A stretch of DNA of 64,000 nt from Gemmatimonadota bacterium (GCA_028287185.1 JAQBQD010000155.1:33609-97608), one strand, 5' to 3'; positions 46,843-64,000 are shown, counted from the first letter of the stretch. Made by a program: numbers and translations. Notes: a model not told the origin generated them from the letters alone.

Positions 46843-47058
46843 CGGCGGAACGTCACTCCAGGGCTTGCGCGGGCGCGGAGGAGCCGGATCGCTCCCGCCG
46901 GGTCCGCGGAGGGCGGCCAGAAACGGCGCGATTCGCCTTTCCGGCCATCATCCAACATAACCAGAACGCTCTCCCACGCACCACTGCCTCCGCGGCGGAG
47001 GACCGGACGTCCGGCGGGAGCCTTCCCGGCCCCGCCGGCGCCCGGTCCCGCGGGCGGC

Positions 47059-47319: not shown

Positions 47320-47348
47320 GCAAACCTCCCGCTCACGGGTGTCCGCGC

Positions 47349-47454
47349 GGGCCGCGGCACCTCCGCGGCCCGAACCGGCCCGCGGTGCCCGCGGGCCTTT
47401 CCGTCCGGCAGGGGAAGGGACGCGGGGCGGGTGGAAAGGCGCCCGCCCCGCGTC
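47349..47454 (-). other. Three consecutive GC-rich stem-loops in the lanA1-lanA2 intercistronic spacer
   Basis: gggccgcgg-cacct-ccgcggccc (47349-47371), ggcccgcgg-tgc-ccgcgggcc (47378-47398), gacgcggggcggg-tggaaaggcg-cccgccccgcgtc (47419-47454); the last one follows the lanA1 stop by about 10 nt. Confidence 0.6.
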
Positions 47455-47464
47455 TCCGAAAAGG

Positions 47465-47761
47465 TCAGACGCAGTCGTACGGGAAGCCGCCGCCGGGCGC
47501 CGCGGCGGCGCCGGGGGCCAGGCCGCAGCCGTTGAAGGTCTCCGGCGGCGACGCGCCGCAGGTGCCGCCGTAGCTGTACCCGCACTGCGCCCACCCCGTG
47601 TCGGGGCACACCTGCACGACCGAGTCCGGACAGTCCGCCGTGTCGCAGAAGGCGGTGCCCACCATCCGGAGCCCCAGCACCGTTCCCCGTCCGCGCCCCG
47701 CCTCCGCCGTCTCGAACGTCTCCACGTTCAGGTCCTCGAGGTCCAGCCGCAGCTTTCTCAT
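47465..47761 (-). CDS. lanA: Lanthipeptide precursor peptide LanA1: FNLD-type leader + Cys/Gly-rich core (7 Cys, 8 Ser/Thr)
   Basis: ATG at 47759-47761 with aaggag RBS; MRKLRLDLEDLNVETFETAEAGRGRGTVLGLRMVG | TAFCDTADCPDSVVQVCPDTGWAQCGYSYGGTCGASPPETFNGCGLAPGAAAAPGGGFPYDCV; first about 28 aa are near-identical to LanA2. Confidence 0.7.
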   Translation of the reverse strand: MRKLRLDLEDLNVETFETAEAGRGRGTVLGLRMVGTAFCDTADCPDSVVQVCPDTGWAQCGYSYGGTCGASPPETFNGCGLAPGAAAAPGGGFPYDCV

Positions 47762-47885
47762 GGGGCTCCTTCCGTTCTGGGTGATGAGGGTACCCGGGCC
47801 TGCAACCTGCCTCCACCGGTTCCGAAGCGCGGCGCGCCCCGACCGACGGCGCTGGACCGGCGGAGGACCGGCCGGGCTCCGGACG

Positions 47886-49907
47886 TCAGCCCGGCACGCC
47901 CGCCCCGGCCGGCTCGCTCTCCACGAACCCGGCGCGGTAGGCCTGCCGAAGCTGCTCCAGCACGCGGCCCCGCAGCCAGTCGCGGTCGGGCGCGCGGTCG
48001 CCGGACACGGCCTCGGCCACGCGGTCCACCACGTCGTCCAGGAGCGCGGAGCCGCGCGTCGCTTCCAGCACCACGGCGGCGAAGGGCGTCAGCCGGCGCT
48101 CCACCACCTTTCCTCCGATGGACTGCAGGAGCACGAACACGTCGTCCTCGGGCGGCAGGGGCTCGCCGGCCGCGTCCTCCAGCCAGCCGTCCCAGTCGCG
48201 GAGGGAGTGGACGAGCCGCGCGCGGGGCGAGAGCGCGAAGGCGGCCTCGTCCCACGCCACCTCGTCCTCCTCCGCGCGCACCAGCGAGGCGATGAACTCC
48301 GCCGTGTTGTCCTCCACCGCCCGCCACAGCTCCACCCGCGCCAGGTCCAGCCGGGCCGCGTCCTCCAGCAGCGCAGCGCGGTCGCCGCCGCCCTCGGCGG
48401 AGATCCGGGCCTTCACGCCGTCGACCGCGGCGGCGACGGGCGAGCGTTCGCGGTTCCCGTCCGCCGCCGCCGCGGCGCGCACGGCGGCGCCATCCGCCCC
48501 CACCGCGGTGAAGGTCCGCAGCGTACGCCCCAGGTAGCCGTCCACGTCGGCCCCGCGGGCCTCGCGGCGGCCGGGCTCGGCCGCCGCGCGGTCGGGGTGC
48601 GCGCCGTCGCGGGTGACGAGGAGGACGGAGGGGACCTCCGGCAGCGCCAGGCGCAGCAGGAACCACCCGATGCCGGACTCGCCCAGCAGCAGGCCGGGGT
48701 CGGAGACTCCTCCCAGGGTGCCGCAGGGCCAGCTCACCCCGGGCCGCTCCCAGCGCTCCACGCCGGTCAGCATGCAGTCCTCCGCCGTCGTCCGCAGCGT
48801 GTCGTCGCCCAGCACGCGCGCGCCGTACAGCAGCGTCTCGCAGTTGCCCGCGCGGCCATGGCAGAGCGAGTAGTTCATCCGGTCGTCCACGATGGAGGCG
48901 AGCGTGGCGCGGAGGGCGGCCTCCGCCTCGTCGCGGTACAGGGGCTCGCCCAGCAGCTCCCACGCGCGCAGCCGGGTGAGGCCGATGCCGGGCGCGCCGT
49001 GGCACCACGCGCTCATGTGGCGCGGCTCGTAGGCGGGAAATCCCTCGGGGCTCGCGATCCGGCGGCGCAGCTCGTCGATGCGGCCGGCGTGCAGGTACTC
49101 GGACAGGTCGCTGTGGCGCAGGTCGGGCCAGTTGTCGTGCTCGGCGCTGAAGGTGCGCCGCTCGTAGACGAAGGCCTGCTCCGCGCCGTGCAGCCAGTGC
49201 CCCTCGCCGGTGGCGTCGTACAGCTCCAGCAGCGCGTGCCCGAAGCCCGCCGCGCCGTGCGCCAGCCCGTTCAGGTTGCGGGCGGACGACTGCGGCATGG
49301 TGGCCCACGACCACCCGTCGGGCTCGCGCACGGCCGTGGCCAGCAGGTTGTCGCCCATGCGCTGCGCCCGCTCCAGCATCCACGCGCCGTCCAGCTCGTC
49401 CGCCATCGCCAGCAGGGCGGGGATGGCGCCCGCCGCGCCGGCGATCACGTCCAGCCCGCGGTCCTGCGCCTCGGCGCCCTCCAGCGGCGCCAGCGTGCGG
49501 CGGGCGGCATCCCGCATCTCCTCCATCCCCAGCAGCTTCGCGGCGCGCAGGGCGGCGTAGGCGATGCCCACGCGGCCCGAGTGGAAGCCGTTCGAGCCGG
49601 GGGGTAGCCCGTCGGCCTCGGCCAGCGAGAAGCGCAGGGCCCCGGCGGCGGCGCGGGCCGCCTCGCGGTCTCCGGTGGCGGCGGCGAGCTGGGCCAGGAA
49701 GAGGGCGATGCCCGCCGTGCCCTCGTAGACGGTGCCCCCGGCGCGGGCGGGCACCGCCACGCGGGCGGCCTGGTTGTCGCGGTCGGGGCTCATCACCTGC
49801 CAGGTGCAGGCGTCGCCCTCCCACAGCGCCTGGGACGCCACGCGCGCGCCGATGCGCGCGGCCGCGTCCAGCAGCGCGCCGCTGCGGGGGTTCTCCGGGT
49901 TGGGCAT
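47886..49907 (-). CDS. lanC: LanC-type lanthipeptide cyclase with about 240-aa C-terminal extension of unknown function
   Basis: ATG at 49905-49907 (MPNPENPRSGALLDAAARIG...); LanC zinc-ligand/active-site motifs GLAHGAAGFGHALLEL, WCHGAPGIGL, LCHGRAGNCE; ORF continues about 240 aa beyond the usual LanC end without any Met. Confidence 0.8.
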   Translation of the reverse strand: MPNPENPRSGALLDAAARIGARVASQALWEGDACTWQVMSPDRDNQAARVAVPARAGGTVYEGTAGIALFLAQLAAATGDREAARAAAGALRFSLAEADGLPPGSNGFHSGRVGIAYAALRAAKLLGMEEMRDAARRTLAPLEGAEAQDRGLDVIAGAAGAIPALLAMADELDGAWMLERAQRMGDNLLATAVREPDGWSWATMPQSSARNLNGLAHGAAGFGHALLELYDATGEGHWLHGAEQAFVYERRTFSAEHDNWPDLRHSDLSEYLHAGRIDELRRRIASPEGFPAYEPRHMSAWCHGAPGIGLTRLRAWELLGEPLYRDEAEAALRATLASIVDDRMNYSLCHGRAGNCETLLYGARVLGDDTLRTTAEDCMLTGVERWERPGVSWPCGTLGGVSDPGLLLGESGIGWFLLRLALPEVPSVLLVTRDGAHPDRAAAEPGRREARGADVDGYLGRTLRTFTAVGADGAAVRAAAAADGNRERSPVAAAVDGVKARISAEGGGDRAALLEDAARLDLARVELWRAVEDNTAEFIASLVRAEEDEVAWDEAAFALSPRARLVHSLRDWDGWLEDAAGEPLPPEDDVFVLLQSIGGKVVERRLTPFAAVVLEATRGSALLDDVVDRVAEAVSGDRAPDRDWLRGRVLEQLRQAYRAGFVESEPAGAGVPG

Positions 49908-49945
49908 GGGGGCCACGCTCGCTTCTCCTGCCGGTGACGGGGGGC

Positions 49946-50917
49946 TCACGCCGTGGCCTCTGCGCCGGCCGGGGCCGGCACCGCCAGGGCGCGGTGGATC
50001 AGGTACGCCAGGTACGACTCCTCCTGGATGCTGACGCCCAGGCGGTTGTTCATCATGTGCACGTAGCTGGGCACGATGGCCGCGACGGCGAACTCCCAGG
50101 TGTCGATCGCCCCGCCCTCGCGAAGCAGTCGCCCGGCGTCGAACAGCTCGCGGAAGCGGACGCGCACCTCCGCCAGGTCGTCGCGCCAGCGGTCCAGCGC
50201 CTCGGAGAGCTCCTCGCCCGTCGCCAGTCGCTCCCAGGCCTCGTCCACGTACGCCGTCAGGTTCCCCGCCTGCTGCTCGAAGCCGCTGCCGAAGGCGTCC
50301 AGCCACGCGCTACGCCGCTCGTCGTCGGGCACCATCGAGCGCAGGTAGTTGATGCCGTACTGCCGCGCGAACTCCGCGGCCGCTGTGCGCTCGGGGTGGA
50401 AGGCGTGCACCAGCACCACCATCGCCAGCAGCCCCTTGCCCAGGCGGCCGCTGCGCTCGGTGGGGTGCACGCGCGCCAGCAGGGCCAGCGCGGCTTCGCT
50501 GGAGCGGTGGAAGAGCTCTTCCGCCAGCAGCACGCCGTCGGGGCCGCCGTAGCGCTCCGTCTCCGGCTCGTACACCGCCTCGGCCACGTGCGTCACCCCC
50601 TCGCCGCCGCTGCCGATGGGCTCCGGATAGCCCTCCTGAAGGTCGGGATACAGGGCCGCCAGGTGCCTGCGCAGCGCGGGCCTCACCTCGCGCTCCAGCA
50701 CGTCGCGCTCGCCGTGGAACCGCAGCCGCACGTGGAAGCCGCGCTCGCTGTAGCGGATGAAGAACCACCGGTCGGCCCACCCGCGCTCGGCGCAGGCGCG
50801 GACGAACGGCTCCACGGCGTCGCGCACGATGGCGTCGCAGTCCCCGCCGTAGATGTTCTCGCGCAGGAACAGGTACTCGCTCAGCCAGGCCTTCTCCATC
50901 TCAGGCGAGGGCGGCAT
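49946..50917 (-). CDS. lanB: Lanthipeptide dehydratase, glutamate-elimination domain (Lant_dehydr_C/SpaB_C-like); stand-alone ORF of a split LanB
   Basis: 323 aa; MPPSPEMEKAWLSEYLF...WFFIRYSERGFHVRLRFHG matches the WF(F/Y)IRY...H(L/V)RLR start of LanB C-terminal domains; overlaps the upstream ORF by 17 nt in a different frame. Confidence 0.75.
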   Translation of the reverse strand: MPPSPEMEKAWLSEYLFLRENIYGGDCDAIVRDAVEPFVRACAERGWADRWFFIRYSERGFHVRLRFHGERDVLEREVRPALRRHLAALYPDLQEGYPEPIGSGGEGVTHVAEAVYEPETERYGGPDGVLLAEELFHRSSEAALALLARVHPTERSGRLGKGLLAMVVLVHAFHPERTAAAEFARQYGINYLRSMVPDDERRSAWLDAFGSGFEQQAGNLTAYVDEAWERLATGEELSEALDRWRDDLAEVRVRFRELFDAGRLLREGGAIDTWEFAVAAIVPSYVHMMNNRLGVSIQEESYLAYLIHRALAVPAPAGAEATA

Positions 50918-53900
50918 GCGCCTCCCCCCGCGCGGGCGCGGCGCCGGCGTTCGCGGTCCCCTCCGGAAAGTCGAGCTGCACCACCATCTCCGTGGCCCAG
51001 CGCCCGCCGGCCACCTCGGCCAGCGCGTCGGGCCCGGGCAGGCGCTCCTCCACGATCACGTTGAAGTGCTTCACCCCCGCGGCCAGCTTGCCCAGCAGCC
51101 CCACCAGCAGCGGGTTGCCAAAGTCCATGAACTGCGGCTTGTAGAAGTCGCGCGACGGCGTGGTCACCTTCACCGGCGGGCCCTTCGCGTCGTCCTCCGC
51201 CTTCGCTCCCTCGGCCTCGGCCGCCTTCGCCGCCTCGGGCTGCTCCGGCTCGTCCGCGGCGGGCATCGCCTCGGCGCCCACGTTCATGGCCGCCTCCTGG
51301 GCGTCCATCGCCGCCGGCGTCTCGTCCCCCGGCTTCTTGGCCGCGGGGTCCGGAATGGGGATCATCCGCACGTAGCAGCTTTCCGGCAGCCCCGCGTCGC
51401 GCCGCCAGCGGGTGGCGCGCACGAAGAAGTCGGCGGCCGTCTCGTCCGCCGCGCGCTGCGGGACGAGGACGCCCGGCACCAGCCACCGCCGCCGGGTCAC
51501 CAGCACCCGCCCGCCTATGGAGATGCGCGGCCGGTGCGAGATCTCCGGCGGGGCAGGGGGCGGCGCCTCGGCCTTCGTCTCCTCGGCGGACGCATCCTCC
51601 GCGGTCGCCGCCTCAGCTCCGGCGTCCGCCGAGGCGATGGAATCCGTGGCCTCGCCGTCCGCCGTCTTCGCGACCCCATCGGACGCAACCACCTGCGCAG
51701 CGGCGGACGCTTCCGGCGCCGCGGCGTCCGCGGTATCGGGAGATGCGACGCCCTCCACGGGGGCGGCCGTATCCGCAGCCGCATCGACCGGCACGCCGTC
51801 GGCCGGCGGAGCCGGGCGCGGCGGGTTGACGGGCGTCTCGGGCACGGACGGCGCGAAGGTGACGGGCGGGGTGAAGCGCGACAGGAGCTGGTACAGCGGC
51901 GGCCGCATGCGCGGGTTCAGGAACCCCAGGTCCACGGGGATCACCCGCCGGCCGCTGGGCCCGTGGCGCAGGGCGAGCGAGTGCGGGTCCTCGGGATCCG
52001 GCTCCACGAACAGGTCCGAGCTGCGGAGCTGGTCGGCCGCGTCGCCGCTCTCGCCCGTGGGGTAGCTGATCTCCCAGCGCATCAACGAGGGGTGCAGGTT
52101 GGCGTTGAACTGCGCATCGCCGCAGATCTCCGCCAGCAGCTCGTCCGTGAGCGCCTGGTTGCCGGCGCGCACCTCCTCCAGGAAGTCTTCCGGCAGCATG
52201 TACAGGAAGCGCGAGAAGTACTTGCCGTACCCCGCGGTGTAGCTGCCGCTCTGCAGCAGGAAGGCGGGGTCGCCCCCCTCCTCGCGCGGGGGCACCAGCA
52301 GGGTGAACGCGCTCACGGAGCGGCACGGCGCCGGCTGCGGCTCGACCCCCGCCAGGGCCTCCTCCACCTCGGCCAGCGGGATCGTGACCTCGGCCGCGTC
52401 GGGCGCCTCGCGCCAGCGCGCCACGATGCGCTCCTGCAGCCGCATGCGCGCCTCGTTGAGCGCCTGGATAAAGGGCAGCTTGAAGGGGTTGTTGACGTCG
52501 TATCCCTCCAGCGCCGCCTTGTCCGCCCCGCCGCGCGCCTTCTGCTCCTTCTCCACGTGCGCCTTGAAGTGCTCGCGGTAGAAGTCCTCGTAGAACTGCA
52601 AAAGCGGCACGCCGTGCCGGTCGCCGTACTGCATGTCGAAGAAGTGCCGCATGGTGGCCTGCTCGGCCCGCGGCCACGCCAGGCGCGAGGTGAGGCGCGC
52701 CCAGTCCACCAGCGCGTCCGTGGCCCGACGCACGCCGGGCGTGAGCGCCACGGTGGCGTCCGCGTCGGCCGTGGCGTCCTCGTAGAACGGCATGTCCTTC
52801 CGCAGGCGGGCCTTCACCTCCATGGCCGTGAACGCCTCGTCGATGGCGGCGTGGATCTCGGCCACCACGGCCTCGCGCCTCTCCACCGGCGCCGCCGCGT
52901 AGGCGTCCGTGCGCTCTCGCACCTGGCGCAGCAGGGCGGCGGCGCGCGTGGCGTGCTCGTCGTCCAGCGCGTCCAGCAGCGCGGCGAAGGGCAGGTCCCA
53001 GTCGGCGTCCTGCTCGCGGATGCCGGTGTGGAAGCGCAGGAAGCCGATCTCGATCAGCTTCTCCAGGTACGCCTCCGCCTCCTCGGTGCTGGCGTCGATC
53101 TGCGGATCGCGCGTCAGCCGGTCCACCAGGTCGCCCAGCGTGGGCGCCGGGTCGGCGGCGAACACCTGCGTGATCACCTGCAGCACCTCGTTGGCGGCCA
53201 CGCGCTGGAACACCTCGCGCCCCTGCACGGCCGACAGGAAGACCAGGCGGGCGCCCTCGGTGCGCAGCGTGGGGTTGGGCTCCACCACCAGCCGCCGCCG
53301 CACGCCGGGCCGCTCCTTGAGGTGATCCAGCAGGATGCCGTACAGCAGCTTGTTGATGCGCACGAAGCTGCGCTTGGCCCGGGGGTCGCCGTGCAGGCGC
53401 AGCAGGCCGCCCTCGCCGTCCTCCGCCGCCCCGTCCTCGGTGAAGCGGCCGGGGACCACGGCGCAGAACGCCGCGAAGGGCGTCGCCTTCATGGCCATGC
53501 GCGTGTAGTAGCGCAGCAGCCCGCGCTCCGTCTTCTCGTCCTTGCCCGAGAGCGCGCCGGCCGTTCCCGCCGTGTAGCGGTCCAGCGACGCGTGCAGCGA
53601 ACGGCTGGACACCAGCAGCCCCTTCCGGAACTCCGGATCGCGCAGCAGCTGGCGGAAGGCCGCCCGGGCCGTTCCGCTCTCCTCGCCGTACGCCGCCGCC
53701 ACCTCCGCCGCCAGCGCGTCGCGCTCCACCAGCGCCTGCTGCAGCGCTCCAACCTCGGATGCCTGCTCGGTGGAGAGCTGCGCGCAGGCGCCTTCCAGCA
53801 CCTCCGCCGGCAGCGGACGCAGGTTGAACAGCTCGCGCCGGGCGCGCAGCAGGCGTTTGCGCGCCGCGCCGTCGTCCCCCGCCGCGCCGATGGCGGCGAA

Positions 53901-54116
53901 CAGCAGGGCCGAGACGGCCTCGCGGCGCTCCGCGAGCGCGTCCTCGGCCGCCAGCAGCGCGTCCAGGCGCTCCAGCGTGCGGGTGGCGCGCATCTGCTCG
54001 ACGCCGTCCACCGGCGCGCCCGAGATCCGGCATACGAAGCGGCGCACCAGGCGCTCGGCCTCCCGCCCGGGGCGGTCCTCGTTCCAGGTGTCGGCGGTCA
54101 CTTCGGCGTTCTCCAT
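50901..54116 (-). CDS. lanB: Lanthipeptide dehydratase, glutamylation domain (Lant_dehydr_N-like) with long Ala/Pro/Asp/Glu-rich low-complexity inserts
   Basis: ATG at 54114-54116 (MENAEVTADTWNEDRPG...); motif YYTRMAMKATPFAAFCAV corresponds to the conserved Y.TRM..R.TPFGLF of LanB; 1071 aa; the upstream part of the 1144-aa six-frame ORF is non-coding-like. Confidence 0.75.
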   Translation of the reverse strand: MENAEVTADTWNEDRPGREAERLVRRFVCRISGAPVDGVEQMRATRTLERLDALLAAEDALAERREAVSALLFAAIGAAGDDGAARKRLLRARRELFNLRPLPAEVLEGACAQLSTEQASEVGALQQALVERDALAAEVAAAYGEESGTARAAFRQLLRDPEFRKGLLVSSRSLHASLDRYTAGTAGALSGKDEKTERGLLRYYTRMAMKATPFAAFCAVVPGRFTEDGAAEDGEGGLLRLHGDPRAKRSFVRINKLLYGILLDHLKERPGVRRRLVVEPNPTLRTEGARLVFLSAVQGREVFQRVAANEVLQVITQVFAADPAPTLGDLVDRLTRDPQIDASTEEAEAYLEKLIEIGFLRFHTGIREQDADWDLPFAALLDALDDEHATRAAALLRQVRERTDAYAAAPVERREAVVAEIHAAIDEAFTAMEVKARLRKDMPFYEDATADADATVALTPGVRRATDALVDWARLTSRLAWPRAEQATMRHFFDMQYGDRHGVPLLQFYEDFYREHFKAHVEKEQKARGGADKAALEGYDVNNPFKLPFIQALNEARMRLQERIVARWREAPDAAEVTIPLAEVEEALAGVEPQPAPCRSVSAFTLLVPPREEGGDPAFLLQSGSYTAGYGKYFSRFLYMLPEDFLEEVRAGNQALTDELLAEICGDAQFNANLHPSLMRWEISYPTGESGDAADQLRSSDLFVEPDPEDPHSLALRHGPSGRRVIPVDLGFLNPRMRPPLYQLLSRFTPPVTFAPSVPETPVNPPRPAPPADGVPVDAAADTAAPVEGVASPDTADAAAPEASAAAQVVASDGVAKTADGEATDSIASADAGAEAATAEDASAEETKAEAPPPAPPEISHRPRISIGGRVLVTRRRWLVPGVLVPQRAADETAADFFVRATRWRRDAGLPESCYVRMIPIPDPAAKKPGDETPAAMDAQEAAMNVGAEAMPAADEPEQPEAAKAAEAEGAKAEDDAKGPPVKVTTPSRDFYKPQFMDFGNPLLVGLLGKLAAGVKHFNVIVEERLPGPDALAEVAGGRWATEMVVQLDFPEGTANAGAAPARGEAHAALA

Positions 54117-54571
54117 CGTCACCGGAAGGATCTGTTGCGGCAGAATGTGGCAGAAACAGGCAGGCGCGCCGGCCGCGCTGGTCTCGCGGCAGGAATCGGC
54201 CTGCCGAGCAGCCGTGGGCCGAGCCAGGATATGCGATACAAAGCGCTTACGGATGATATTCGCGGAGCCCAAATCTCGCAAGCCGCCGCCATTTGCGTAG
54301 GGCCGCACCCGTCCGCGCCCACCATCCCAGATCACCAGCAGCCATCTCGTTGCTCCTGCGCCCCTTCCGTCTTTTCAGACGCCCGCAGGCGATCGAGTCT
54401 CTGGAACGCCGGCGAATTCTCCACGTCGCAAAGGGAGCGAACCATACATCAGAAATCGACTGGACCGGCTACAGGTGTTTCGATCCCCGGCATGTCTCCC
54501 GTGCTCGGAGCTCGAGGCCCCTCGTCGAAAGAAGTCCGGCCCTTCCGTCCCCGCTGACGGCGTGCGGAGCG

Positions 54572-55000: not shown

Positions 55001-55756
55001 CTATAGCCCGGTGGGATGATCGATGAACTCCCACGCGATGCCGAACTTCTCCTCCAGGTGGCGCGCCAGGGCCTTCACGCCCCACGTCTCGGTGGCGTAG
55101 TGGCCGCCCAGGAAGAGGTTGACGCCGCCCTCCTCCGCGTCGAAATAGTTGTGATGTGCACCTTCTCCTGTGATGAACGCGTCCAGCCCCGCCGCGGCGG
55201 CCGCGCCCACCATGCTGCCCGCGCCGCCGGTGATGATGCCCATCCGGCGCACGCGCTCGGGCCCACCCGGCACCAGCTTCACGCGCACGCCCAGCACCTC
55301 GTCCAGGCGCGCGCAGAGCGCCTCGCGGCGCAGGTCCAGCTCGCCCCACACCCCCAGCGGCCACCCCTTGTAGTCCGCGAACGTCCCCCGCGGCTCCATG
55401 CCCAGCGCGCGGGCGAGCACGGCATTGTTGCCCACCTCGGGGTGCACGTCCAGCGGCAGGTGCGCCGAGTAGACGGCCAGGTCCGCGTGGAACAGCGCGC
55501 GCAGCCGGCGATAGCGCCGTCCGGTGACGGGCTGGCTGCCGTCCCAGAACAGGCCGTGGTGCACCAGAAGCAGGTCTGCGCCGCTGGCGGCCGCGCGCTC
55601 CACCACCGCCTGGGCCGCGTCCACCGCCACCGCGATCCGGCGCACCTCGCCGCGGCCGGTGTCCAGCTGCAGGCCGTTGAGCGCGCCTGCGTAGTCCGGC
55701 ACCTCGCAGATGCGCAGGTAGTCGTCCAGGTACTCGGTCAGCTCGCTCGGGGTCAC
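55001..55756 (-). CDS. Nif3-family dinuclear-metal-centre protein (YqfO/YbgI-like)
   Basis: VTPSELTEYLDDYLRICEVPDYAGALNGLQLD...; start uncertain (GTG at 55754-55756 preferred; the ORF's ATG at 55873 would place a DnaA-box cluster inside an atypical N-terminal extension). Confidence 0.65.
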   Translation of the reverse strand: MTPSELTEYLDDYLRICEVPDYAGALNGLQLDTGRGEVRRIAVAVDAAQAVVERAAASGADLLLVHHGLFWDGSQPVTGRRYRRLRALFHADLAVYSAHLPLDVHPEVGNNAVLARALGMEPRGTFADYKGWPLGVWGELDLRREALCARLDEVLGVRVKLVPGGPERVRRMGIITGGAGSMVGAAAAAGLDAFITGEGAHHNYFDAEEGGVNLFLGGHYATETWGVKALARHLEEKFGIAWEFIDHPTGL

Positions 55757-55780
55757 GCGGGGCGCGGGGTTCCGGCCGGT

Positions 55781-55888
55781 TCCACAATTGTGGATAACGA
55801 CGGTGGATAAACCTGGGATGTTTCTGTGGAAAATCTGCAACCCAATGTGGGACGCAGGTTTAAGACTGCACACCGCGTTTGTGGAGAA
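55781..55888. promoter_or_regulatory. Cluster of DnaA-box-like 9-mers (candidate oriC element or DnaA-regulated region)
   Basis: TGTGGATAA (55789-55797, perfect DnaA box), GGTGGATAA (55802-55810), TGTGGAAAA (55825-55833), TGTGGAGAA (55880-55888), plus inverted TTCCACA (55781-55787); locally A/T-richer; about 3.5 kb from parAB-mnmG. Confidence 0.5.
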
Positions 55889-56356
55889 CTACGCGAAGCT
55901 TTGTTCAGGTTCGCCTGGCGGAAGGGCGTGGGGCAGCGGCTGCGGAGCGCCGTCCATCATCCGGATCTGGCCGTTGAACTGCGCCCCCTCCTCCAGCGAC
56001 AGGTGGTGGGGATGGGTGCGGATCTCGCCCTCGATGTCGCAGGTGGACTGCAGCGTCAGCCGCTCGGCCGTCAGCGTCCCGCGGATGCGCCCGCCGATCA
56101 CGATGGTTTCGGCCGTGACGTCGCCGACGATCTCGCCCTCCTTGCCGATGAACACCGATCGGCCCGCGCGCAGCGTGCCCTGGATGCGTCCCTCCACGCG
56201 GATCTCGCCCTCGGTGGTCACGTCGCCCACCACCACCATCCCGGGACCGATCAGCGAGATCGATCCCACCTCCGCATTGCGGATCGCCGAAGCCACCTTG
56301 TCTCGTGCCACGGACCCTCCCGGCCGGTCGTTCGTTTTCTTTCCGAAGATCGCCAT
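55889..56356 (-). CDS. Bactofilin (DUF583) cytoskeletal protein
   Basis: MAIFGKKTNDRP...; repeated beta-helix pattern IGPGMVVVGDVTTEGEIRVEGRIQGTLRAGRSVFIGKEGEIVGDVTAETIVIGGRIRGTL. Confidence 0.75.
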   Translation of the reverse strand: MAIFGKKTNDRPGGSVARDKVASAIRNAEVGSISLIGPGMVVVGDVTTEGEIRVEGRIQGTLRAGRSVFIGKEGEIVGDVTAETIVIGGRIRGTLTAERLTLQSTCDIEGEIRTHPHHLSLEEGAQFNGQIRMMDGAPQPLPHALPPGEPEQSFA

Positions 56357-56368: not shown

Positions 56369-57133
56369 TCATCGCGGGTTGCGGACCAGGCTCCGGGGAT
56401 CGACCGGGCTGCCGTCCTTGCGGATCTCGAAGTGCAGGTGCGGCGCCGTGGACGCGCCCGTGCTGCCGCTCAGCGCGATCACCTGATCGCGCGCCACGCG
56501 CTGGCGCCGCGCCACCAGCAAGCGCGACGCGTGCCCGTACAAGCTCTCGTATCCGCCCGCGTGGGCGATGCGCACGAAGCGGCCGTACACCGGGTCCTCG
56601 CGCGCCTCCGTCACCACGCCCGCGCCCGCCGCATGGATGGCCGATCCCGCCGCCACCGCGATGTCCAGCCCCGGGTGCCCCAGCCCCGCGCGGCCCAGCA
56701 GCCCGCGGGTGACGAAGCCCGCCGGGCTGAGCGGCCAGTCGCGGGGCAGGGAAGCCTGCGGCGAGCCCCCGTGCGCCGGCGTGCTGTCCACGACCGCCGC
56801 GCCCGGTTCCGCCGTGTCGCGCACGATGGAGTCGCGAGGCACGTCACCGCCCAGCATCGCGCGCACCCGGTCGTACTGCGCCTCCATGCGGGCCACGGCC
56901 CGGGACAGCTCCTCCACCCGCTGCCGGTCCTTCTGCAGCGTTGCGATCTCGTGCTTCAGCGCCGGCACGCGCGCCGCCTGCGCCGCGAACCAGAACCACG
57001 TCACCGCCATCAGCACGATCGCCACGCCCGCCGCCGCGCCGCCGATCACGGCCAGGCGCAGCTGACGGTACGTCACCTCGAACGAGCGCGTCGTCAGGTC
57101 CTCGCTTCCGTGCGGGACGATGATGAACGACAT
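56369..57133 (-). CDS. M23-family metallopeptidase (LytM domain) with N-terminal TM and coiled-coil
   Basis: ATG at 57131-57133 (MSFIIVPHG...); HxxxD and HLHFEIR zinc motifs. Confidence 0.75.
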   Translation of the reverse strand: MSFIIVPHGSEDLTTRSFEVTYRQLRLAVIGGAAAGVAIVLMAVTWFWFAAQAARVPALKHEIATLQKDRQRVEELSRAVARMEAQYDRVRAMLGGDVPRDSIVRDTAEPGAAVVDSTPAHGGSPQASLPRDWPLSPAGFVTRGLLGRAGLGHPGLDIAVAAGSAIHAAGAGVVTEAREDPVYGRFVRIAHAGGYESLYGHASRLLVARRQRVARDQVIALSGSTGASTAPHLHFEIRKDGSPVDPRSLVRNPR

Positions 57134-57230
57134 GCGCCGCTCGTCCCGGTCGCGGGGCTTCGCCACGTCGGCCCGCCTCAGCGCAAAAGCGGGGAATGGA
57201 CCCCGCCCCGGGATGTCGATCCCGCGTCGG

Positions 57231-58220
57231 TCACGGCCGGTCCGCCTCGGCGCCCAGGATCAGCTCGAGGACCCGGTCGAAGTCGTCCGCGTTGTAGAAG
57301 GGGATCTCGATGCGACCTGCCTTGCCGCCCTTCAGGTGGATGCGCACCGCCGTGCCCAGCGTGCGCTGCAGGTCCGCCTCCAGCGACCGCAGGTGCGGAT
57401 CGTCCATCCCCCGGCCGCGCCCGCCCACTGCCGGCGTTCCCGAGAGCGCGGCGGAGGGTCGCGCATCCGTGGCGCCCTCCGTGGCCGCCGCGTCGGACGG
57501 CGTGGCTGCGGCGGGAGCACGCCGGGCACGCACCCGCTCCTCCACCACCCGCACCGACAGCCCGCGGTCCACGGTTTCGCGCGCCAGGTCCGCCATGGCG
57601 CGCTCGTCCTCCAGCCCCAGGATGGCGCGGGCGTGGCCCATCGACAGCGACCCCAGGCTCACCATGCGCTGCACGGAGGGGGGAAGCTGGAGCAGGCGAA
57701 GGAGGTTGGCGACGGTGCTGCGCTCGCGGCCCACGCTCTCGGCCACCTCGGCCTGCGTGAAGCCGAACTCGTCGATGAGCTGCCGGTAGCCCTGGGCCTC
57801 CTCCAGCGGCGAAAGCTCGGCGCGCTGGACGTTCTCCACGATGGCCAGGATGAGCATGGCGCGGTCGTCCAGCTCCTTGACCACCGCCGGCACCTCCGTC
57901 CACCCCAGGCGCCGCACGGCCCGCCAGCGCCGCTCGCCCGCCACCAGCTCCCAGTCCGCGCCCTCGGCCGTCGCCGAGGTGGCCGCGCGGACCACGATGG
58001 GCTGCAGCAGGCCGTTCTGGCGGATGGACTCTTCCAGCTCCGCCAGCTGCTCGGGCGCGAACTCGCGGCGGGGCTGGAAGGGGTTGGGGGCGATGCGCGA
58101 GGTGGCGAGCTGGCGTAGCGTCTCGCCGCTCTGGGGGCCGCCGCCCTCCTCGCCCGGCAGGTACTCGCCCAGCAGCGCGCTGAGTCCCTTGCCGAGCCGG
58201 CCCTTCTTCTGCGCCGACAC
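57231..58220 (-). CDS. parB: Chromosome partitioning protein ParB
   Basis: GTG start (cac 58218-58220) overlapping the parA stop by 1 nt; ParB box GERRWRA, HTH and KGRLGKGLSALL N-terminus. Confidence 0.85.
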   Translation of the reverse strand: MSAQKKGRLGKGLSALLGEYLPGEEGGGPQSGETLRQLATSRIAPNPFQPRREFAPEQLAELEESIRQNGLLQPIVVRAATSATAEGADWELVAGERRWRAVRRLGWTEVPAVVKELDDRAMLILAIVENVQRAELSPLEEAQGYRQLIDEFGFTQAEVAESVGRERSTVANLLRLLQLPPSVQRMVSLGSLSMGHARAILGLEDERAMADLARETVDRGLSVRVVEERVRARRAPAAATPSDAAATEGATDARPSAALSGTPAVGGRGRGMDDPHLRSLEADLQRTLGTAVRIHLKGGKAGRIEIPFYNADDFDRVLELILGAEADRP

Positions 58221-59032
58221 TACCTGGCCCCCGCCGCCGCGGCCGCCGCCGGCGCGCTCGCCGTGGCCACCTTCCGCGAGATCACTTCCTTCGCCAGCGC
58301 CAGGTAGCTCTTGGCACCCACGGACAGCACGTCGTACAGCACGATCGGCTTCCCGAAGCTCGGCGCCTCGGCGATGCGCACGTTCCGGGGAATGGTGGTG
58401 CGGTACACCTTGGGGCCGAAGTACTCCTTCGCCTCCTCGGCCACCTGGCGCGACAGGTTGAGGCGGCCGTCGAACATGGTCAGCAGCACGCCCTCGATCT
58501 GGAGCCGCGGGTTCAGGTTCTTCTGCACCAGCGTGACGGTGTTCAGGAGCTGCGAGAGGCCCTCCAGCGCGTAGAACTCGCACTGGATGGGGATGAGCAC
58601 CGAGTCGGCCGCGGCCAGCGTGTTGAGCGTGATCAGGCCCAGGGAGGGGGGACAGTCGATGAGGATGTATTCGTAGCGGTTGCGCACCACGTCCAGCGCC
58701 CGCTTCAGGATGGTGTCGCGGTTGCGGCGGTTCACCAGCTCCACCTCGGCGCCCACCAGGTCGCGCGTGGCCGGTGCCACGTCCAGGAAGGGGAAGTGAA
58801 CCTGGGAGCGGATCACGTCCTCCAGCGGCGTGTCGCCCGTCAGCACGTCGTACATCGACCGCTCCAGCTCGTCCTTGACGATTCCGAGCCCGCTGGTGGC
58901 GTTGCCCTGCGGGTCGGTATCGATCACCAGGGTCTTCTTCTCCGCCACGGCCAGGCACGCGCCAAGGTTGATGGCCGTGGTCGTCTTTCCGACGCCGCCC
59001 TTCTGGTTCGCGATTGCGATGATGCGCGACAC
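58220..59032 (-). CDS. parA: Chromosome partitioning ATPase ParA/Soj
   Basis: Deviant Walker A KGGVGKTTTAINL directly after the proposed GTG start (cac 59030-59032; VSRIIAIANQKGG...); the alternative ATG at 59152 would add a 40-aa non-conserved leader. Confidence 0.8.
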   Translation of the reverse strand: MSRIIAIANQKGGVGKTTTAINLGACLAVAEKKTLVIDTDPQGNATSGLGIVKDELERSMYDVLTGDTPLEDVIRSQVHFPFLDVAPATRDLVGAEVELVNRRNRDTILKRALDVVRNRYEYILIDCPPSLGLITLNTLAAADSVLIPIQCEFYALEGLSQLLNTVTLVQKNLNPRLQIEGVLLTMFDGRLNLSRQVAEEAKEYFGPKVYRTTIPRNVRIAEAPSFGKPIVLYDVLSVGAKSYLALAKEVISRKVATASAPAAAAAAGAR

Positions 59033-59120
59033 GCTGCTCCTCTGGGTGTGGTCTTGCTGCGGGAGTCGGGAGTGGTTCGCGCAATATAACGCGCGTGCGC
59101 GCGAGGCGTCCAGCGAAGCC

Positions 59121-59146
59121 AGCCGTGTTCCACGTGGAACACGGCT
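59121..59146. promoter_or_regulatory. parS centromere-like site (perfect 26-bp palindrome containing TGTTCCACGTGGAACA)
   Basis: agccgTGTTCCACGTGGAACAcggct read directly; 2 symmetric mismatches to the canonical TGTTTCACGTGAAACA; located between mnmG stop and parA start. Confidence 0.8.
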
Positions 59147-59148
59147 TC

Positions 59149-61041
59149 TCACGCACCCACGGGGGGTGCCGCTCGGCGCTTCCGCACCTCCATCACCAGA
59201 TTCTGCAGGTCGCTGGGGCTCACACCCGGCACCCGCCCGGCCTGCGCCAGGGTATGCGGCCGGATGCGGCCCAGCTTCTGCCGCGCCTCGAACGAAAGCG
59301 ACAGCAATCCATCGTACTCCAACTCCGGCGGCAGCACGAAGTCCGCCTGCCGCTGCAAAGCCGCGGCGCGCTCGCGCTCACGGACCAGATACCCCTCGTA
59401 GCGAAGCTCCATCTCCGCCGCCGCCAGCGCCTCACGGACCGCTTCCGCATCCCCCTCGACACCGCCATCGATCGCCGCCGCCAGCTTCTCCGCGGGCACG
59501 TTCGGGCGTCGGATCAGTGCTGCCAGCCGCGTCGGCTCGGTGATCGGCGAGGAGCCCACTTCCCCGAGGACCGGATTCGCCTGCGCGGGAGAGATGTTCG
59601 TGGAATCCAGCCATCCGCTGACCCTTTCCAGCAGCTCCAGGCGCTCGCCGAGCGCTCGCTCCTGCCCCTCCGTCAGCAGCCCACGCGCGGCCGCGATGGG
59701 GCCCAGGCGGTGCAGCGCGTTGTCCTGCCGCAGCGTCAGGCGGAACTCGGCGCGCGAGGTGAACAGGCGATACGGCTCGTCCGTTCCACGCGTCACCAGG
59801 TCGTCCACCAGCACCCCGATGAACGCCTCGTCCCGCTCCAGGATCAGGGGATCGGCGCCATGCGCGGCGAAGGCGGCGTTCGCGCCCGCGACGACGCCCT
59901 GGCCTGCGGCCTCTTCGTATCCCGTTGTGCCGTTCACCTGGCCGGCCAGGAAGAGGCCGTCCAGCGCCTTGCTTTCCAGCGTGGCGCGGAGCTGGTGGGG
60001 TGGGTAATAGTCGTATTCGATGGCGTATCCCACCTTGGTAATGCGCGCATGCTCCATCCCCGGAACGCTGCGCAGCATGCGGAGCTGCACGTCCGCCGGC
60101 AGGGACGTGGAAAGGCCGTTCACGTACAGCTCGTGCGTCTCCAGTCCCTCGGGCTCCAGGAAGACCTGGTGCCGTGTGGCATCCGGAAACTTCACGATCT
60201 TGTCTTCGATGGAGGGGCAGTAGCGCGGGCCACGGCCTGCGATCTCGCCCCCGTAGAGGGCGGATTCGGACAGGCTGGAGCGCACGATGTCGCGCAGCTC
60301 CTCGCCCGTCCATGTGATCCAGCAGGGGAGCTGGGGCAGGAGCGGGGCTTTCTCCCACGTCGACAGGCGGTAGTCCGGGCTCTCGCCGGGCTGCAATTCG
60401 CACCGGGCGAGGTCCACCGTACGCCCGTCCACGCGGGGTGGAGTGCCCGTCTTGAAGCGCGCCACCTCCAACCCCAGGGCCTCCATCTGCTCCGCCAGGC
60501 GGATCGACGGCGCGTCGCCCGCACGTCCAGCCGGCACCCCGGCGGCGCGGCCCACGTGGATTCGTCCACGCAAGAAGGTGCCTGCGGTGAGGACCACGGA
60601 GCGGGCGTGGAACTCGACTCCGCTCTCCGTGCGCACGCCCGCAACGCGGTTTCCCTCGAGGATGAGAGAGCCGACCATCGCCTGAAACAGGTCCAGCTTC
60701 TCGATCCGTTCCAGCAGGCTACGAACGGCGCGGGGATAGAGTCCGCGGTCGCATTGCGCGCGAGGAGCCCACACGGCGGGGCCCTTGGAACGGTTCAGCA
60801 TCCGGAACTGGATGCGGGAGCGGTCCGTCGCCAGCCCCATGATGCCGCCAAGCGCATCCACCTCGCGCACCACGGTGCCCTTCGCGACGCCGCCGATCGC
60901 CGGGTTGCAGCTCATCTGGCCGACGCCCTCCAGGTTCGGCGTGACGAGCAGCGTGCGCGCACCCGCGCGCGCTGACGCCGCGGCGGCCTCCACACCCGCG
61001 TGCCCGCCGCCCACCACGATCACGTCGTATCTCTGCTCCAT
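59149..61041 (-). CDS. mnmG: tRNA uridine-5-carboxymethylaminomethyl modification enzyme MnmG (GidA)
   Basis: ATG at 61039-61041; MEQRYDVIVVGGGHAGVEAAAASARAG FAD-binding motif and GidA-family conservation throughout; 630 aa. Confidence 0.9.
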   Translation of the reverse strand: MEQRYDVIVVGGGHAGVEAAAASARAGARTLLVTPNLEGVGQMSCNPAIGGVAKGTVVREVDALGGIMGLATDRSRIQFRMLNRSKGPAVWAPRAQCDRGLYPRAVRSLLERIEKLDLFQAMVGSLILEGNRVAGVRTESGVEFHARSVVLTAGTFLRGRIHVGRAAGVPAGRAGDAPSIRLAEQMEALGLEVARFKTGTPPRVDGRTVDLARCELQPGESPDYRLSTWEKAPLLPQLPCWITWTGEELRDIVRSSLSESALYGGEIAGRGPRYCPSIEDKIVKFPDATRHQVFLEPEGLETHELYVNGLSTSLPADVQLRMLRSVPGMEHARITKVGYAIEYDYYPPHQLRATLESKALDGLFLAGQVNGTTGYEEAAGQGVVAGANAAFAAHGADPLILERDEAFIGVLVDDLVTRGTDEPYRLFTSRAEFRLTLRQDNALHRLGPIAAARGLLTEGQERALGERLELLERVSGWLDSTNISPAQANPVLGEVGSSPITEPTRLAALIRRPNVPAEKLAAAIDGGVEGDAEAVREALAAAEMELRYEGYLVRERERAAALQRQADFVLPPELEYDGLLSLSFEARQKLGRIRPHTLAQAGRVPGVSPSDLQNLVMEVRKRRAAPPVGA

Positions 61042-61099
61042 CGTACCGCCGTTGAAGTGAGGATCGGCCTCGCTCGTTCTTACCTCCGTGCAGGGTTGC

Positions 61100-61115
61100 T
61101 GTTCCACGTGGAACA
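61100..61115. promoter_or_regulatory. Second parS site (identical 16-mer TGTTCCACGTGGAACA)
   Basis: ctgTGTTCCACGTGGAACActc, about 60 bp upstream of the mnmG start codon. Confidence 0.75.
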
Positions 61116-61203
61116 CTCCTGTTCCGCAGACAAGTCATGACTGGCACACTCGTTGCGCCTGCGGCCCATCCCACGGACGGGGACCTGATCCACGGAGGAA
61201 TGC

Positions 61204-62421
61204 ATGGACGAGAAGAAGACCGGCACGGGAGATGGCGCGGGGTACGGCGCCGGAAGCGGACGGACGGGCTCGGGGGCCAGCAGCTCCGACCGCTCGGGAC
61301 TGACGGACGGATTCGAAGGCAGCGGCACCTCGCGGTCGGGCGCGGAGCGCAACGCGTCGGGCATCGGCGGCACGGGAAGCGAGCGCAGCGGCACCGGAGC
61401 GTCGGCGGGCCTCGGCGGCACGGGCACCAACCGCGGGCTGGGTTCCGACGCAGGGCTCACCGCCTCGTCCAGCGAGATGTCCGGCGGCACGCGCGGCAGC
61501 GGGTACTCGGCCTCCAGCAAGGATCCGCTGGGCGGCTCCGGAGCCTCGGGCGGCACGTCGGGCACATCGGGCGCGTCGGGAAGCTCCGGCTACGGCAGCA
61601 GCGCCCTGTCCGGAAGCGAGGGCACGTCGGGTTCCAGCGGGCTCAGCGGATCGGGGAGTGCCTTCGGGTCGAGCGGCCTCAGTGGCTCGGGATCGACGAG
61701 CGGCGGCTCCGGCCTGAGCGGTTCAAGCAGTTCGACGGGCTCCTCTGGGATGAGCGGGTCCGGGTCTTCGAGCGGATCGTCCGGGCTCAGCGGCTCCGGC
61801 AGCTCCGCGGGCTCGTCCGGTTTAGGAGGCTCCAGCGCGTCGACGGGATCGTCGGGCCTCGGCGGTTCGAGCGCATCGACCGGATCCAGCGGCCTGGGTG
61901 GATCGGGAAGCTCGACAGGGTCGTCCGGTCTCGGCGGCTCTGGATCGTCGTACGGTTCGCCGGGGCTGAGCGGATCCAGCGCCTCGAGCGGGGGCACCCT
62001 CGGCGGCACGGGATCTACCTCGGGGCTCGGCGGAAGCGCGTCGGGTGGCTCGTCCTGGACGCCGGGATCGGCGGAGGGTTCGGGCGCGTCCGGCGTGGGC
62101 GCGCAGGTACAGCAGGCCGCGGCGGGCGTGGCGGGCCGGCTGGAGGATCGGGCAAACGAGGTGATCAACCGCGTGGGCGACGGGCTGCAGCAGGCGGCCG
62201 ACCGCATCGAGGACATCTCGGGCGGCGGCGACATCGCGGCCAAGGCCGGCGACCTGGCGCACAGCGCGGCGGACGGCATGGAGTCGGCGGCGCGCTACCT
62301 GCGCGACAACGACGTGCGCTCGCTGCAGGGCGACCTGGAGCGCATGGTGCGCGAGAAGCCGCTGCAGACGCTGCTGATGGGCGTCGCGGCGGGGTGGCTC
62401 GTGGGCAAGATCCTCCGCTGA
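61204..62421 (+). CDS. YqjD/ElaB-like (DUF883) membrane-anchored protein with about 300-aa Gly/Ser-rich tandem-repeat region
   Basis: C-terminus DLERMVREKPLQTLLMGVAAGWLVGKILR is the DUF883 C-terminal TM signature; central region consists of degenerate GSSGLGGSSASTGSS-type repeats (repetitive DNA about 61560-62060). Confidence 0.6.
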   Translation: MDEKKTGTGDGAGYGAGSGRTGSGASSSDRSGLTDGFEGSGTSRSGAERNASGIGGTGSERSGTGASAGLGGTGTNRGLGSDAGLTASSSEMSGGTRGSGYSASSKDPLGGSGASGGTSGTSGASGSSGYGSSALSGSEGTSGSSGLSGSGSAFGSSGLSGSGSTSGGSGLSGSSSSTGSSGMSGSGSSSGSSGLSGSGSSAGSSGLGGSSASTGSSGLGGSSASTGSSGLGGSGSSTGSSGLGGSGSSYGSPGLSGSSASSGGTLGGTGSTSGLGGSASGGSSWTPGSAEGSGASGVGAQVQQAAAGVAGRLEDRANEVINRVGDGLQQAADRIEDISGGGDIAAKAGDLAHSAADGMESAARYLRDNDVRSLQGDLERMVREKPLQTLLMGVAAGWLVGKILR

Positions 62422-62435
62422 CCGGGAGAACGGCC

Positions 62436-62894
62436 ATGAACGAGCCCCAGATCGCCCGCACGCCGGTGACGGACGGCCGCCCCCTGGGGGGGGCCGATCC
62501 GTCGCTGGGCGACCTCTTCCGGCAGCTCGCGGAGGACAGCGCGACGCTGATCCGGCAGGAGGTGGCCCTCGCCAAGACGGAGATGAAGGACAACGTCCAG
62601 CATGCGGCGAAGAACGCCAGCATGGTGGCGGTGGGCGGGGTCGTCGCCGCGATCGGGGCCCTCGTCCTGGTCGCCTTCCTGGTGATGATCGTCGGCAAGG
62701 CGCTCGGGGCGCCCTGGGCGGGAGCGCTGGTGGTGGGCCTGCTGTTCGTGATCGCCGGCGCGGTGCTGGCGAAGCGTGCGCTGGGCCACCTGAAGCACGA
62801 CTCGCTGGCCCCCGAGAACACCATCCAGAGCCTCAAGGAGGACAAGCAATGGGTGCAGACCGAGATGCAGCAGGCACGCCGGGAGCTGGCATGA
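62436..62894 (+). CDS. YqjE-like (DUF1469, holin-X-like) inner membrane protein
   Basis: ATG at 62436 with gggaga RBS; two TM helices (MVAVGGVVAAIGALVLVAFLVMIV, ALVVGLLFVIAGAVLA); gene order after a DUF883 gene matches yqjD-yqjE. Confidence 0.55.
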   Translation: MNEPQIARTPVTDGRPLGGADPSLGDLFRQLAEDSATLIRQEVALAKTEMKDNVQHAAKNASMVAVGGVVAAIGALVLVAFLVMIVGKALGAPWAGALVVGLLFVIAGAVLAKRALGHLKHDSLAPENTIQSLKEDKQWVQTEMQQARRELA

Positions 62895-63580
62895 CGCCCG
62901 GGGCCGGCCGCGACGACGGCGGACTGAACGCCGGCACCACGCGTTCCATGGCGGGCGACCGTCCGGGAAGCGCGGAGGTTCACGGGGGCCTGCACGCGGG
63001 TGGAAGCCCGGGCGGCTCCACCGCGGCCATGGGCGACACCGCCCGCACGGGCTCCGCGTCCGACGAGTACGGCGCGCTGAGCTTCAGCCGTGGAGCCGAG
63101 GAGGAGGGCCTGCGCGAGAAGGCCACCAACCGGATCAGCGGCGCGCTGGAGGATGCCAAGGACCTGGGCGGCCGCGCCACCGAGCTCGTGGGCCAGGCCC
63201 GCGAGCGCGCAGGCGAGATGGCGGGCGAGGCGCGCGAGCGCATGACCCAGGCGATGGGCCAGGCCGAGGACATGCTTCGCCGCAGCGGCGCCATCGACCG
63301 CGTGAAGGCCAACCCCATGCCCGCGCTTGGCATCGCCTTCGGGGTGGGCTACCTGCTGGCGGGCAGCAGCAAGGGCGTGGTGGGCAAGGCCAAGGGCGAG
63401 CTGAAGCACGCGGTGCTCGCCGGCCTCACCGCCACGGTGGCCCGCGAGGCGCGCGACTACCTGGGCAGCAGCGGCGGCGGCATGCTCAGCCAGTTCCTGG
63501 GCGGGCAGGGGGGCGGGCAGACGGGCCGGAGCGGGAGCACGGCCTCGCACCGGCCGCCCAGCCACCGCGAGCAGCTCTAG
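62891..63580 (+). CDS. Second DUF883-like (ElaB/YqjD family) protein
   Basis: ATG at 62891 overlapping the upstream stop (ATGA); ...RISGALEDAKDLGGRATELVGQARERAGEMAGEARERM...PMPALGIAFGVGYLLAGSSK resembles the DUF883 core + C-terminal anchor. Confidence 0.5.
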   Translation: MTPGAGRDDGGLNAGTTRSMAGDRPGSAEVHGGLHAGGSPGGSTAAMGDTARTGSASDEYGALSFSRGAEEEGLREKATNRISGALEDAKDLGGRATELVGQARERAGEMAGEARERMTQAMGQAEDMLRRSGAIDRVKANPMPALGIAFGVGYLLAGSSKGVVGKAKGELKHAVLAGLTATVAREARDYLGSSGGGMLSQFLGGQGGGQTGRSGSTASHRPPSHREQL

Positions 63581-63582
63581 CG

Positions 63583-63852
63583 GTGGTGGAGGCGGGCCTG
63601 CGGGTTCGGGGCCGGGTGCAGGGCGTGGGATTCCGCTGGTGGGTCCGCGCCCAGGGCACCCGCCTCGGCCTCGCCGGCACCGTGCACAACTGCGACGACG
63701 GGACCGTGGAGGTTCACCTCCGTGGTCCCGCGTCCGTCGTCGACCAGATGACCCGGCTTCTCCACGACGGTCCGCCCGGCGCGCGGGTGGATACCGTCGA
63801 CTCCGTTCCGTTCCGCGAAGCACCCGGCGCCGGCTTCTCTATCCTCCGCTGA
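63583..63852 (+). CDS. acyP: Acylphosphatase
   Basis: GTG start; VRGRVQGVGFRWWVRAQGTRLGLAGTVHNCDDGTVEVHLRG matches the acylphosphatase signature (VxGxVQGVxFR ... GxVxNxxDGxV). Confidence 0.75.
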   Translation: MVEAGLRVRGRVQGVGFRWWVRAQGTRLGLAGTVHNCDDGTVEVHLRGPASVVDQMTRLLHDGPPGARVDTVDSVPFREAPGAGFSILR

Positions 63853-64000
63853 GCCGAATTCCGAACATCACCCGAAGAAAAACGGCTTCTCAGGTTCGCT
63901 CAGGACGCACGAACGCCGATTCGCGAGGGCACTCGTTCGCTTAGAACGTCAAAATGCCTCAGAGGCGAAATTCGGGCGGTTTTTTCGTCGCGCACTCCGC

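Follow-up and report, generated by a model that had tools for sequence, protein, structure and literature searches.

Accessory clusters of DnaA boxes near replication origins are well known, among them a cluster in Streptomyces, and the classical, near-universal consensus of such a box is TTWTNCACA. The closest described systems show several uses of such sites. In B. subtilis, some of the DnaA-box clusters (DBCs) proximal to oriC regulate the gene next to them, repressing dnaA, ywlC and yydA and activating sda, and by binding DnaA the clusters as a set hold initiation back (Okumura et al. 2012, PMC3245932). In P. aeruginosa five DnaA boxes that are bound by DnaA regulate gidAB-parAB (PMC13438810); across such systems DnaA has been described as a repressor, an activator and possibly a terminator (PMC13438810, PMC3245932). 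Two further kinds of element come from E. coli. The essential boxes of datA point in one direction, with a site for a bending protein between boxes 2 and 3, and early duplication of datA raises its dose just after initiation; the core of a DARS element consists of three boxes, of which I and II lie head-to-head, and it binds ADP-DnaA and releases the ADP (PMC5742627). Origins of the basal-unwinding-system (BUS) type, finally, follow a rule by which at least 3 DnaA-trios (3'-NAN-5', consensus 3'-GAT-5') lie no more than 16 bp downstream of a DnaA box (PMC8287927).

Replication control is essentially unstudied in the Gemmatimonadota, and our literature search found nothing on origins or DnaA sites in this phylum and no earlier description of the element reported here. 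The element lies in a 64-kb stretch of DNA, the whole of which we call the window, from a Gemmatimonadota bacterium that is Longimicrobium-like to judge by the relatives of its ParB. Based on Pfam matches and reading of the open reading frames, the genes around it are all on the minus strand, in the order mnmG, parA, parB, an M23 peptidase gene, a bactofilin gene, a spacer, nif3, a DUF427 gene and a class-I lanthipeptide cluster. The gene mnmG (gidA) occupies 59149..61041 (Pfam GIDA, 2e-152). It is followed by parA (58220..59152 for the ORF as listed; Pfam AAA_31/CbiA/ParA), whose true start is probably further downstream than that of the listed ORF, and by parB (57231..58220), identified from its translation, from the relatives that it finds and from Pfam ParB domains on contig L067, which is identical to this part of the window. 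The M23 peptidase gene (56369..57166, Pfam PF01551) and the bactofilin gene (55889..56356, Pfam PF04519), which is the final gene of this upstream operon and syntenic in all relatives, come next. The M23 peptidase and bactofilin genes stand right after parA-parB in the same order in all Gemmatimonadota loci examined, which suggests that parA-parB-M23-bactofilin is a conserved module for segregation and the cell wall. Two perfect parS sites, TGTTCCACGTGGAACA, are found at 59126..59141, at the 5' edge of parA, and at 61100..61115, just upstream of mnmG, so that the two parS sites and parA-parB-mnmG, which a preliminary description of this DNA had placed near the boxes, all lie within 5 kb. No dnaA gene is present within the 64-kb window.

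Downstream of the spacer, nif3 (55001..55756, minus strand; NIF3/DUF34, Pfam PF01784) encodes 251 aa from a GTG start at 55756. This start had been proposed in place of an annotated one further upstream, and several observations agree with it: the PF01784 match begins at that very residue, a separate gene call, made on the identical contig L067, also gives 251 aa, and in our alignment of related loci (A1) the ATG/GTG column is invariant, with the sequence upstream of it not conserved as coding. The in-frame upstream start at 55873 had been described as an ATG; the actual codon is GTG.

The spacer between bactofilin and nif3 (55757..55888, 132 bp, GC 0.55) holds the whole array, which comprises five boxes within about 110 bp, four head-to-tail and a fifth convergent on them. 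Box 1 (TTCTCCACA, 55880..55888, minus strand) directly follows the bactofilin stop codon (TAG, 55889-55891) and starts at -132 from the nif3 start. Box 2 (TTTTCCACA, 55825..55833, minus strand), box 3 (TTATCCACC, 55802..55810, minus strand) and box 4 (TTATCCACA, 55789..55797, minus strand), the last of which is a perfect consensus box, start at -77, -54 and -41. Box 5 (GGTTCCACA, 55778..55786) is weaker and inverted, lies on the plus strand at -30 and faces box 4, with which it forms a 14-nt palindrome, TCCACAATTGTGGA, at 55781-55794, whose left half is part of the inverted box. The four boxes in one orientation on the minus strand, the palindrome made by an inverted TTCCACA with the nearest of them, and the locally A/T-richer DNA (GC 0.51-0.57 at the array, as against about 0.72 in the surroundings and the genome) are thus present as the preliminary description had them.

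Such a concentration of boxes is far above expectation. Sequences with at most one mismatch to TTATCCACA occur five times in the 64-kb window, four of them in the array, with 1.47 expected window-wide; the motif TTWTCCAC occurs three times, always in the array, with 0.28 expected. Shuffling the 132-bp spacer 50,000 times never produced more than two boxes where four are observed, even though the shuffles drew on the spacer alone and so retained its box-rich composition. A chance cluster or a functionless, neutral relic, for which only the small size of the element speaks, has next to no probability in our estimation, given these shuffle statistics and the box-specific invariance found across 16 loci whose spacers have otherwise diverged.

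That invariance is evident from related genomes. The cluster is present in all 16 related loci that reach the bactofilin-nif3 spacer (ParB 57-73% identical); two further loci stop short of the spacer. In the 15-sequence alignment A1, whose mean column identity is 63%, 26 of the 32 invariant columns fall within the 36 columns of the boxes (Fisher p = 4e-17), and 8 of the 9 columns of box 1 are invariant in the 15 sequences. The boxes of the family follow the consensus TT(T/A)TCCAC(A/G/C), i.e. TTWTNCACA, while the sequence between boxes drifts and the 30 nt before the nif3 start are not conserved. Spacing is conserved as well: the window, L002 and L006 share the same offsets of all five box starts from the nif3 start, and most other loci lie within a few bp of these. 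The 13-bp step from box 3 to box 4 is found in 16/16 relatives, the 23-bp step from box 2 to box 3 recurs in most, and the distance of about 46 bp from box 1 to box 2 is conserved. In every aligned relative, box 4 is followed by a convergent half-site, GTGGAA or GGGGAA; at the position of box 5, L014 has a full box, TTATCCACG, and many relatives have a degenerate one. High-GC parB loci from other phyla, scanned as a control, show no clusters and just 0-1 boxes per 20 kb, and the same scan finds clusters beside dnaA wherever a locus contains dnaA.

One locus, L016, from a Gemmatimonas MAG, departs from this pattern. Its array is reduced to about two weak boxes, ATATCCACA and an inverted AACCCACA, at 11869-12004; the spacer after its bactofilin gene is strongly AT-rich, a gene for a BMP-like lipoprotein is inserted before nif3, and there is no dnaA within 10 kb of its parB. 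Because the array is reduced in this one Gemmatimonas locus, we regard it as conserved at the level of the class (the Longimicrobium group) rather than of the phylum. Further afield, two Bacillota loci of Oscillospirales type have DnaA-box clusters in pairs, some 1.4 kb downstream of parB (L024 12239-12467 and L042 12327-12596), and DnaA-box clusters just downstream of parB may thus not be confined to the Gemmatimonadota.

We infer that DnaA occupies the array. The same 9-mer family is found at two places in this lineage where DnaA is expected, namely the dnaA promoter and the dnaA-dnaN spacer. At the dnaA promoter a consensus DnaA box sits between the -35 and -10 elements, TTGACT-TTTCCACA...TAGGTT (contig L074 8800-8877, window-equivalent about 69.0 kb; L068 9925-9955), a layout that, judged by its motifs, is that of classic autoregulation. 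The identification of the array's repeats as DnaA boxes is well supported, since the full 9-mer fits the consensus and recurs at these expected targets. It is quite unlikely that a different, lineage-specific DNA-binding protein, such as a nif3 regulator or a ParB-like protein, binds the repeats and that their likeness to DnaA boxes is coincidental. Such a protein could be suspected from the core TTCCAC/GTGGAA, which is also a half-site of the local parS TGTTCCACGTGGAACA, and from the position of the last box in a palindrome, as in many repressor operators. However, each of the four direct boxes fits TTWTNCACA over the full 9-mer and not in the core alone, and this full 9-mer is conserved; the lineage has the same 9-mers in its dnaA promoter and its dnaA-dnaN spacer; and four of the five sites are direct repeats, unlike a dimeric operator. 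The palindrome was also considered as a parS site and rejected: it has 2-6 extra central bases, and no parS-like match (up to 3 mismatches) is found at the array.

Is the array, then, the replication origin? We consider it, with a probability of roughly 70%, to be an origin-proximal accessory DnaA-box cluster and not the origin itself, a reading drawn from motif content, synteny and comparison with relatives. A scan of 55.7-55.9 kb for runs of at least 4 DnaA-trios found none within 16 bp of any box in the array, and inspection by eye found no run of 3 trios after box 4 or box 5. The array also has no AT-rich unwinding element; the lowest GC content of any 40-bp stretch there is 0.40, and this minimum lies over the boxes themselves.

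A complete candidate origin is found elsewhere in the lineage. The dnaA-dnaN spacers of four relatives (L068, L070, L072 and L014) each hold 8-10 boxes in both orientations, together with a conserved module CCACA-CCCT-CTACTACTAC... in which a DnaA box is followed by a 4-bp GC spacer and at least 4 trios of the 3'-GAT-5' type (L068 11689-11745; L070 11644-11700; L072 11784-11840; L014 585-646 on the reverse strand), and after this module a 40-bp stretch of 28-35% GC. This arrangement has the basal-unwinding-system architecture (defined in PMC8287927), and we predict that it is the canonical origin. In L072, a 5.78-Mb Gemmatimonadota contig, six tandem copies of GAGAGTGC were additionally observed at the start of the dnaA-dnaN spacer (11470-11520).

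The window can be tied to this arrangement through contig L074, which matches window positions 60199-64000 with 0 mismatches and extends through mnmE, yidC, yidD, rnpA and rpmH, on one strand, to dnaA, on the other. The start of dnaA falls at window-equivalent position 69,076, 13.2 kb from the array, and L074 ends inside dnaA; a search with the host's 194-aa DnaA N-terminus found only relatives of up to 67% identity and no DnaA of the same species. In L068 and L070 four divergent small genes separate mnmG from mnmE, yidC, yidD, rnpA and rpmH, which share its strand, and dnaA and dnaN follow on the opposite strand (L072 has no mnmG block in the flank covered). The window is colinear with this layout, and from the relatives and this synteny we predict that the origin of the window genome lies in its dnaA-dnaN spacer, beyond the edge of the window at a window-equivalent position of about 70-71 kb. 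Both elements can occur in one genome: L014 carries its origin-like spacer 11.6 kb from its bactofilin-nif3 cluster, and in L017 dnaA and the cluster are 11.9 kb apart. The dnaA genes of L014 and L017 were located by tblastn with an approximate B. subtilis DnaA sequence as the probe, and Pfam-annotated gene calls confirmed the hits; a search for Longimicrobium DnaA proteins followed, and the contigs that carry them were read.

The possibility that the array is oriC, forms one half of a split origin or serves as a second origin-like element, as oriCII does in Pseudomonas, must be weighed against these data. It has some appeal, with five good boxes in 110 bp and a local dip in GC, in an origin region where parS, parAB and mnmG lie within 5 kb and dnaA 13 kb off; moreover, the boxes of the array are nearer to consensus than those of the dnaA-dnaN spacers, and a gidA-linked second origin-like region is known in Pseudomonas (PMC13438810). 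The cumulative GC-skew minimum within the window, at about 60-61 kb, is also close by, but skew inside the 64 kb tracks the strand of the genes, and because it mirrors gene orientation in this way we did not use it for the origin question. We nevertheless hold this possibility to be highly improbable. Besides having neither an AT-rich unwinding element nor trios at any box, the 132-bp spacer is wholly filled by boxes, a hairpin and the nif3 leader; four relatives have a complete origin module between dnaA and dnaN, and one of them carries both elements; and forks leaving the array would meet the transcription of rpmH-rnpA-yidC-mnmE and of mnmG-parAB head-on. The preliminary description had left the choice between an oriC component and a DnaA-titration or regulatory site, and had named a stronger DnaA-box cluster next to dnaA as the observation that would speak against the former; such a cluster is what the four relatives carry, with its 8-10 boxes, trios and AT-rich stretch. 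Of the two readings the former is therefore not upheld, and the latter fits the evidence.

Between boxes 1 and 2 of the array lies a conserved stem-loop, CUGCG-U-CCCA-CAU-UGGG-U-UGCAG (55835..55857, minus strand), that ends 1 nt before the T-run, this T-run being the TTTT of box 2. In the window it folds with an MFE of -11.8 kcal/mol (z = -2.5). A hairpin is found at the matching place in 10/10 relatives folded, with z-scores of -0.75 to -6.5 that are weak in some of them (about -0.8 to -1.5); these stem-loops are GC-rich, and 1-5 nt separate their ends from the TTTT of box 2. Compensatory changes are seen at 5 of the 7 pairs of the consensus, and the stem sequences differ among relatives. It is probable that the stem-loop is the intrinsic terminator of the parA-parB-M23-bactofilin operon. 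This is the simplest reading because of its place right after the bactofilin stop codon; a strict terminator scan misses it because its T-run has only 4 Ts.

Other signals were searched for in the same region. A promoter and terminator consensus scan of 55500-56100 found no sigma-70-type promoter in the spacer, and no conserved TTGnnn-17-TAnnnT promoter was seen by eye in the aligned spacers of the relatives; that sigma-70-type promoters do exist in the lineage follows from the TTGACT and TAGGTT elements at dnaA. Rfam gave nothing meaningful at E <= 1 in 55600-56000 and no match at gathering score window-wide, and a tRNA scan found nothing relevant. A recurrent CAA-N4-TTG in the spacer between boxes 1 and 2 was examined as an E. 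coli-type IHF site and discarded, for it is without the WATC part and belongs to the arm and loop of the hairpin.

How might the array act? We propose that DnaA binds across the 132 bp that lead up to nif3, including the terminator-like hairpin at the end of the upstream operon. Because the array covers both the end of the operon and the nif3 leader, bound DnaA should control the transcription that reaches nif3 and the DUF427 gene, and the array, as judged from its position, probably gates transcription into nif3. This could happen in several ways: DnaA might reinforce termination, act as a roadblock, or occlude or activate a nif3 promoter, which we did not locate. Expression of nif3 would then follow the level of DnaA and hence the replication cycle.

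The array may also titrate DnaA, by analogy with known clusters. At about 15 kb from the predicted origin it should be duplicated right after initiation, and this early duplication would make it a local sink for DnaA, as are the ori-proximal clusters of B. subtilis and datA of E. coli. Between these two roles we favour gene control as the primary constraint, because the distance of the array to the nif3 start codon is conserved.

A more specialised role would be that of a dedicated regulator of the nucleotide state of DnaA, of the datA type (ATP hydrolysis) or the DARS type (ADP release). The four boxes in one direction with fixed spacing and the conserved interval of about 46 bp that separates box 1 from box 2 do resemble datA, whose origin-proximal place the array shares, and the conserved head-to-head pair of boxes 4 and 5 resembles the DARS core (PMC5742627). 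On the other hand, what is conserved in the spacer is a hairpin whose compensatory changes speak for an RNA or a terminator and not for a protein site; datA and DARS are known only from E. coli and its relatives; and gene control accounts better for the constant distance to the nif3 start. We consider this role unlikely. Similarly doubtful, in our estimate, is a broader scheme in which the array would be a lineage-specific cell-cycle switch: DnaA on the terminator of the parAB-M23-bactofilin operon would couple the DnaA cycle to the segregation machinery, setting both the read-through into nif3 and, in the fashion of datA and DARS, the pool or nucleotide state of DnaA. Under that scheme the array might in addition be a barrier to the spreading of ParB from the parS site 3.3 kb away.

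Several other features of the window were recorded in passing. Beyond nif3 and the DUF427 gene, positions 45034-54374 hold a class-I lanthipeptide set with a split LanB dehydratase (separate N- and C-terminal genes), a LanC cyclase and an ABC exporter; between LanC and the exporter, gene calls on contig L067, identical to the window, give two small ORFs of 98 and 86 aa that could encode precursor peptides. Divergent from mnmG, a gene at 61204-62421 encodes a 405-aa protein, most of it Gly/Ser-rich repeats, whose C-terminal part is conserved; a holin-like gene (PF07332) comes next, and this block is kept in relatives. Upstream of htpG, an island of lower GC (18800-20200, about 0.62 vs 0.72) carries one 308-aa ORF (19156-20082, minus strand) and otherwise no confident genes, and may be acquired DNA. 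A three-gene prkA-DUF444-spoVR-like operon occupies 744-6602 on the minus strand.

For the Longimicrobium group these results lead to two predictions, an origin in the form of a BUS-type module between dnaA and dnaN, and a secondary DnaA site, strongly conserved, between the end of the parAB-bactofilin operon and nif3. They also nominate nif3, a widespread gene (DUF34) whose role is unclear, as a gene controlled by DnaA. For annotation they carry a warning, namely that the best-matching DnaA boxes of an origin region need not mark the origin, and the array offers a compact natural example of accessory DnaA-box clusters beyond the model organisms.

Compared with the described systems, the array shares something with each. 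With a BUS-type oriC (PMC8287927) it has tandem consensus boxes in common, but not the trios or the AT-rich unwinding region. The boxes of P. aeruginosa oriCII/gidA are likewise five in number, near gidA(mnmG)-parAB and apart from the working origin; those boxes, however, precede gidA, where they drive the gid-par operon, and their fragment can replicate on a plasmid (PMC13438810), whereas the array is downstream of the par-bactofilin operon and upstream of nif3 and is without an unwinding element. Like the array, E. coli datA is non-coding and origin-proximal and has boxes in one direction with one longer gap, but it needs an IHF site and about 260 bp and promotes ATP hydrolysis; the array is half that size and abuts the start of a gene, and its spacer between boxes 1 and 2 holds a hairpin where datA has an IHF site between its core boxes. 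The DARS1/DARS2 core of E. coli has a head-to-head pair next to a further box; the array also has such a pair, but with a box 5 that is degenerate in many relatives, and in it four boxes run head-to-tail and only the last pair is convergent.

The DBCs of B. subtilis, like the array, consist of a few consensus boxes in an intergenic spacer near but outside oriC. They belong to another phylum and have other neighbours, the array adjoining bactofilin and nif3, and the array has in addition a conserved internal stem-loop and a convergent terminal box. The array is thus a new example of the known accessory clusters, in an unstudied phylum, and what appears to be particular to it is the combination of the conserved stem-loop within the cluster, the convergent box at its end and the predicted link to nif3.
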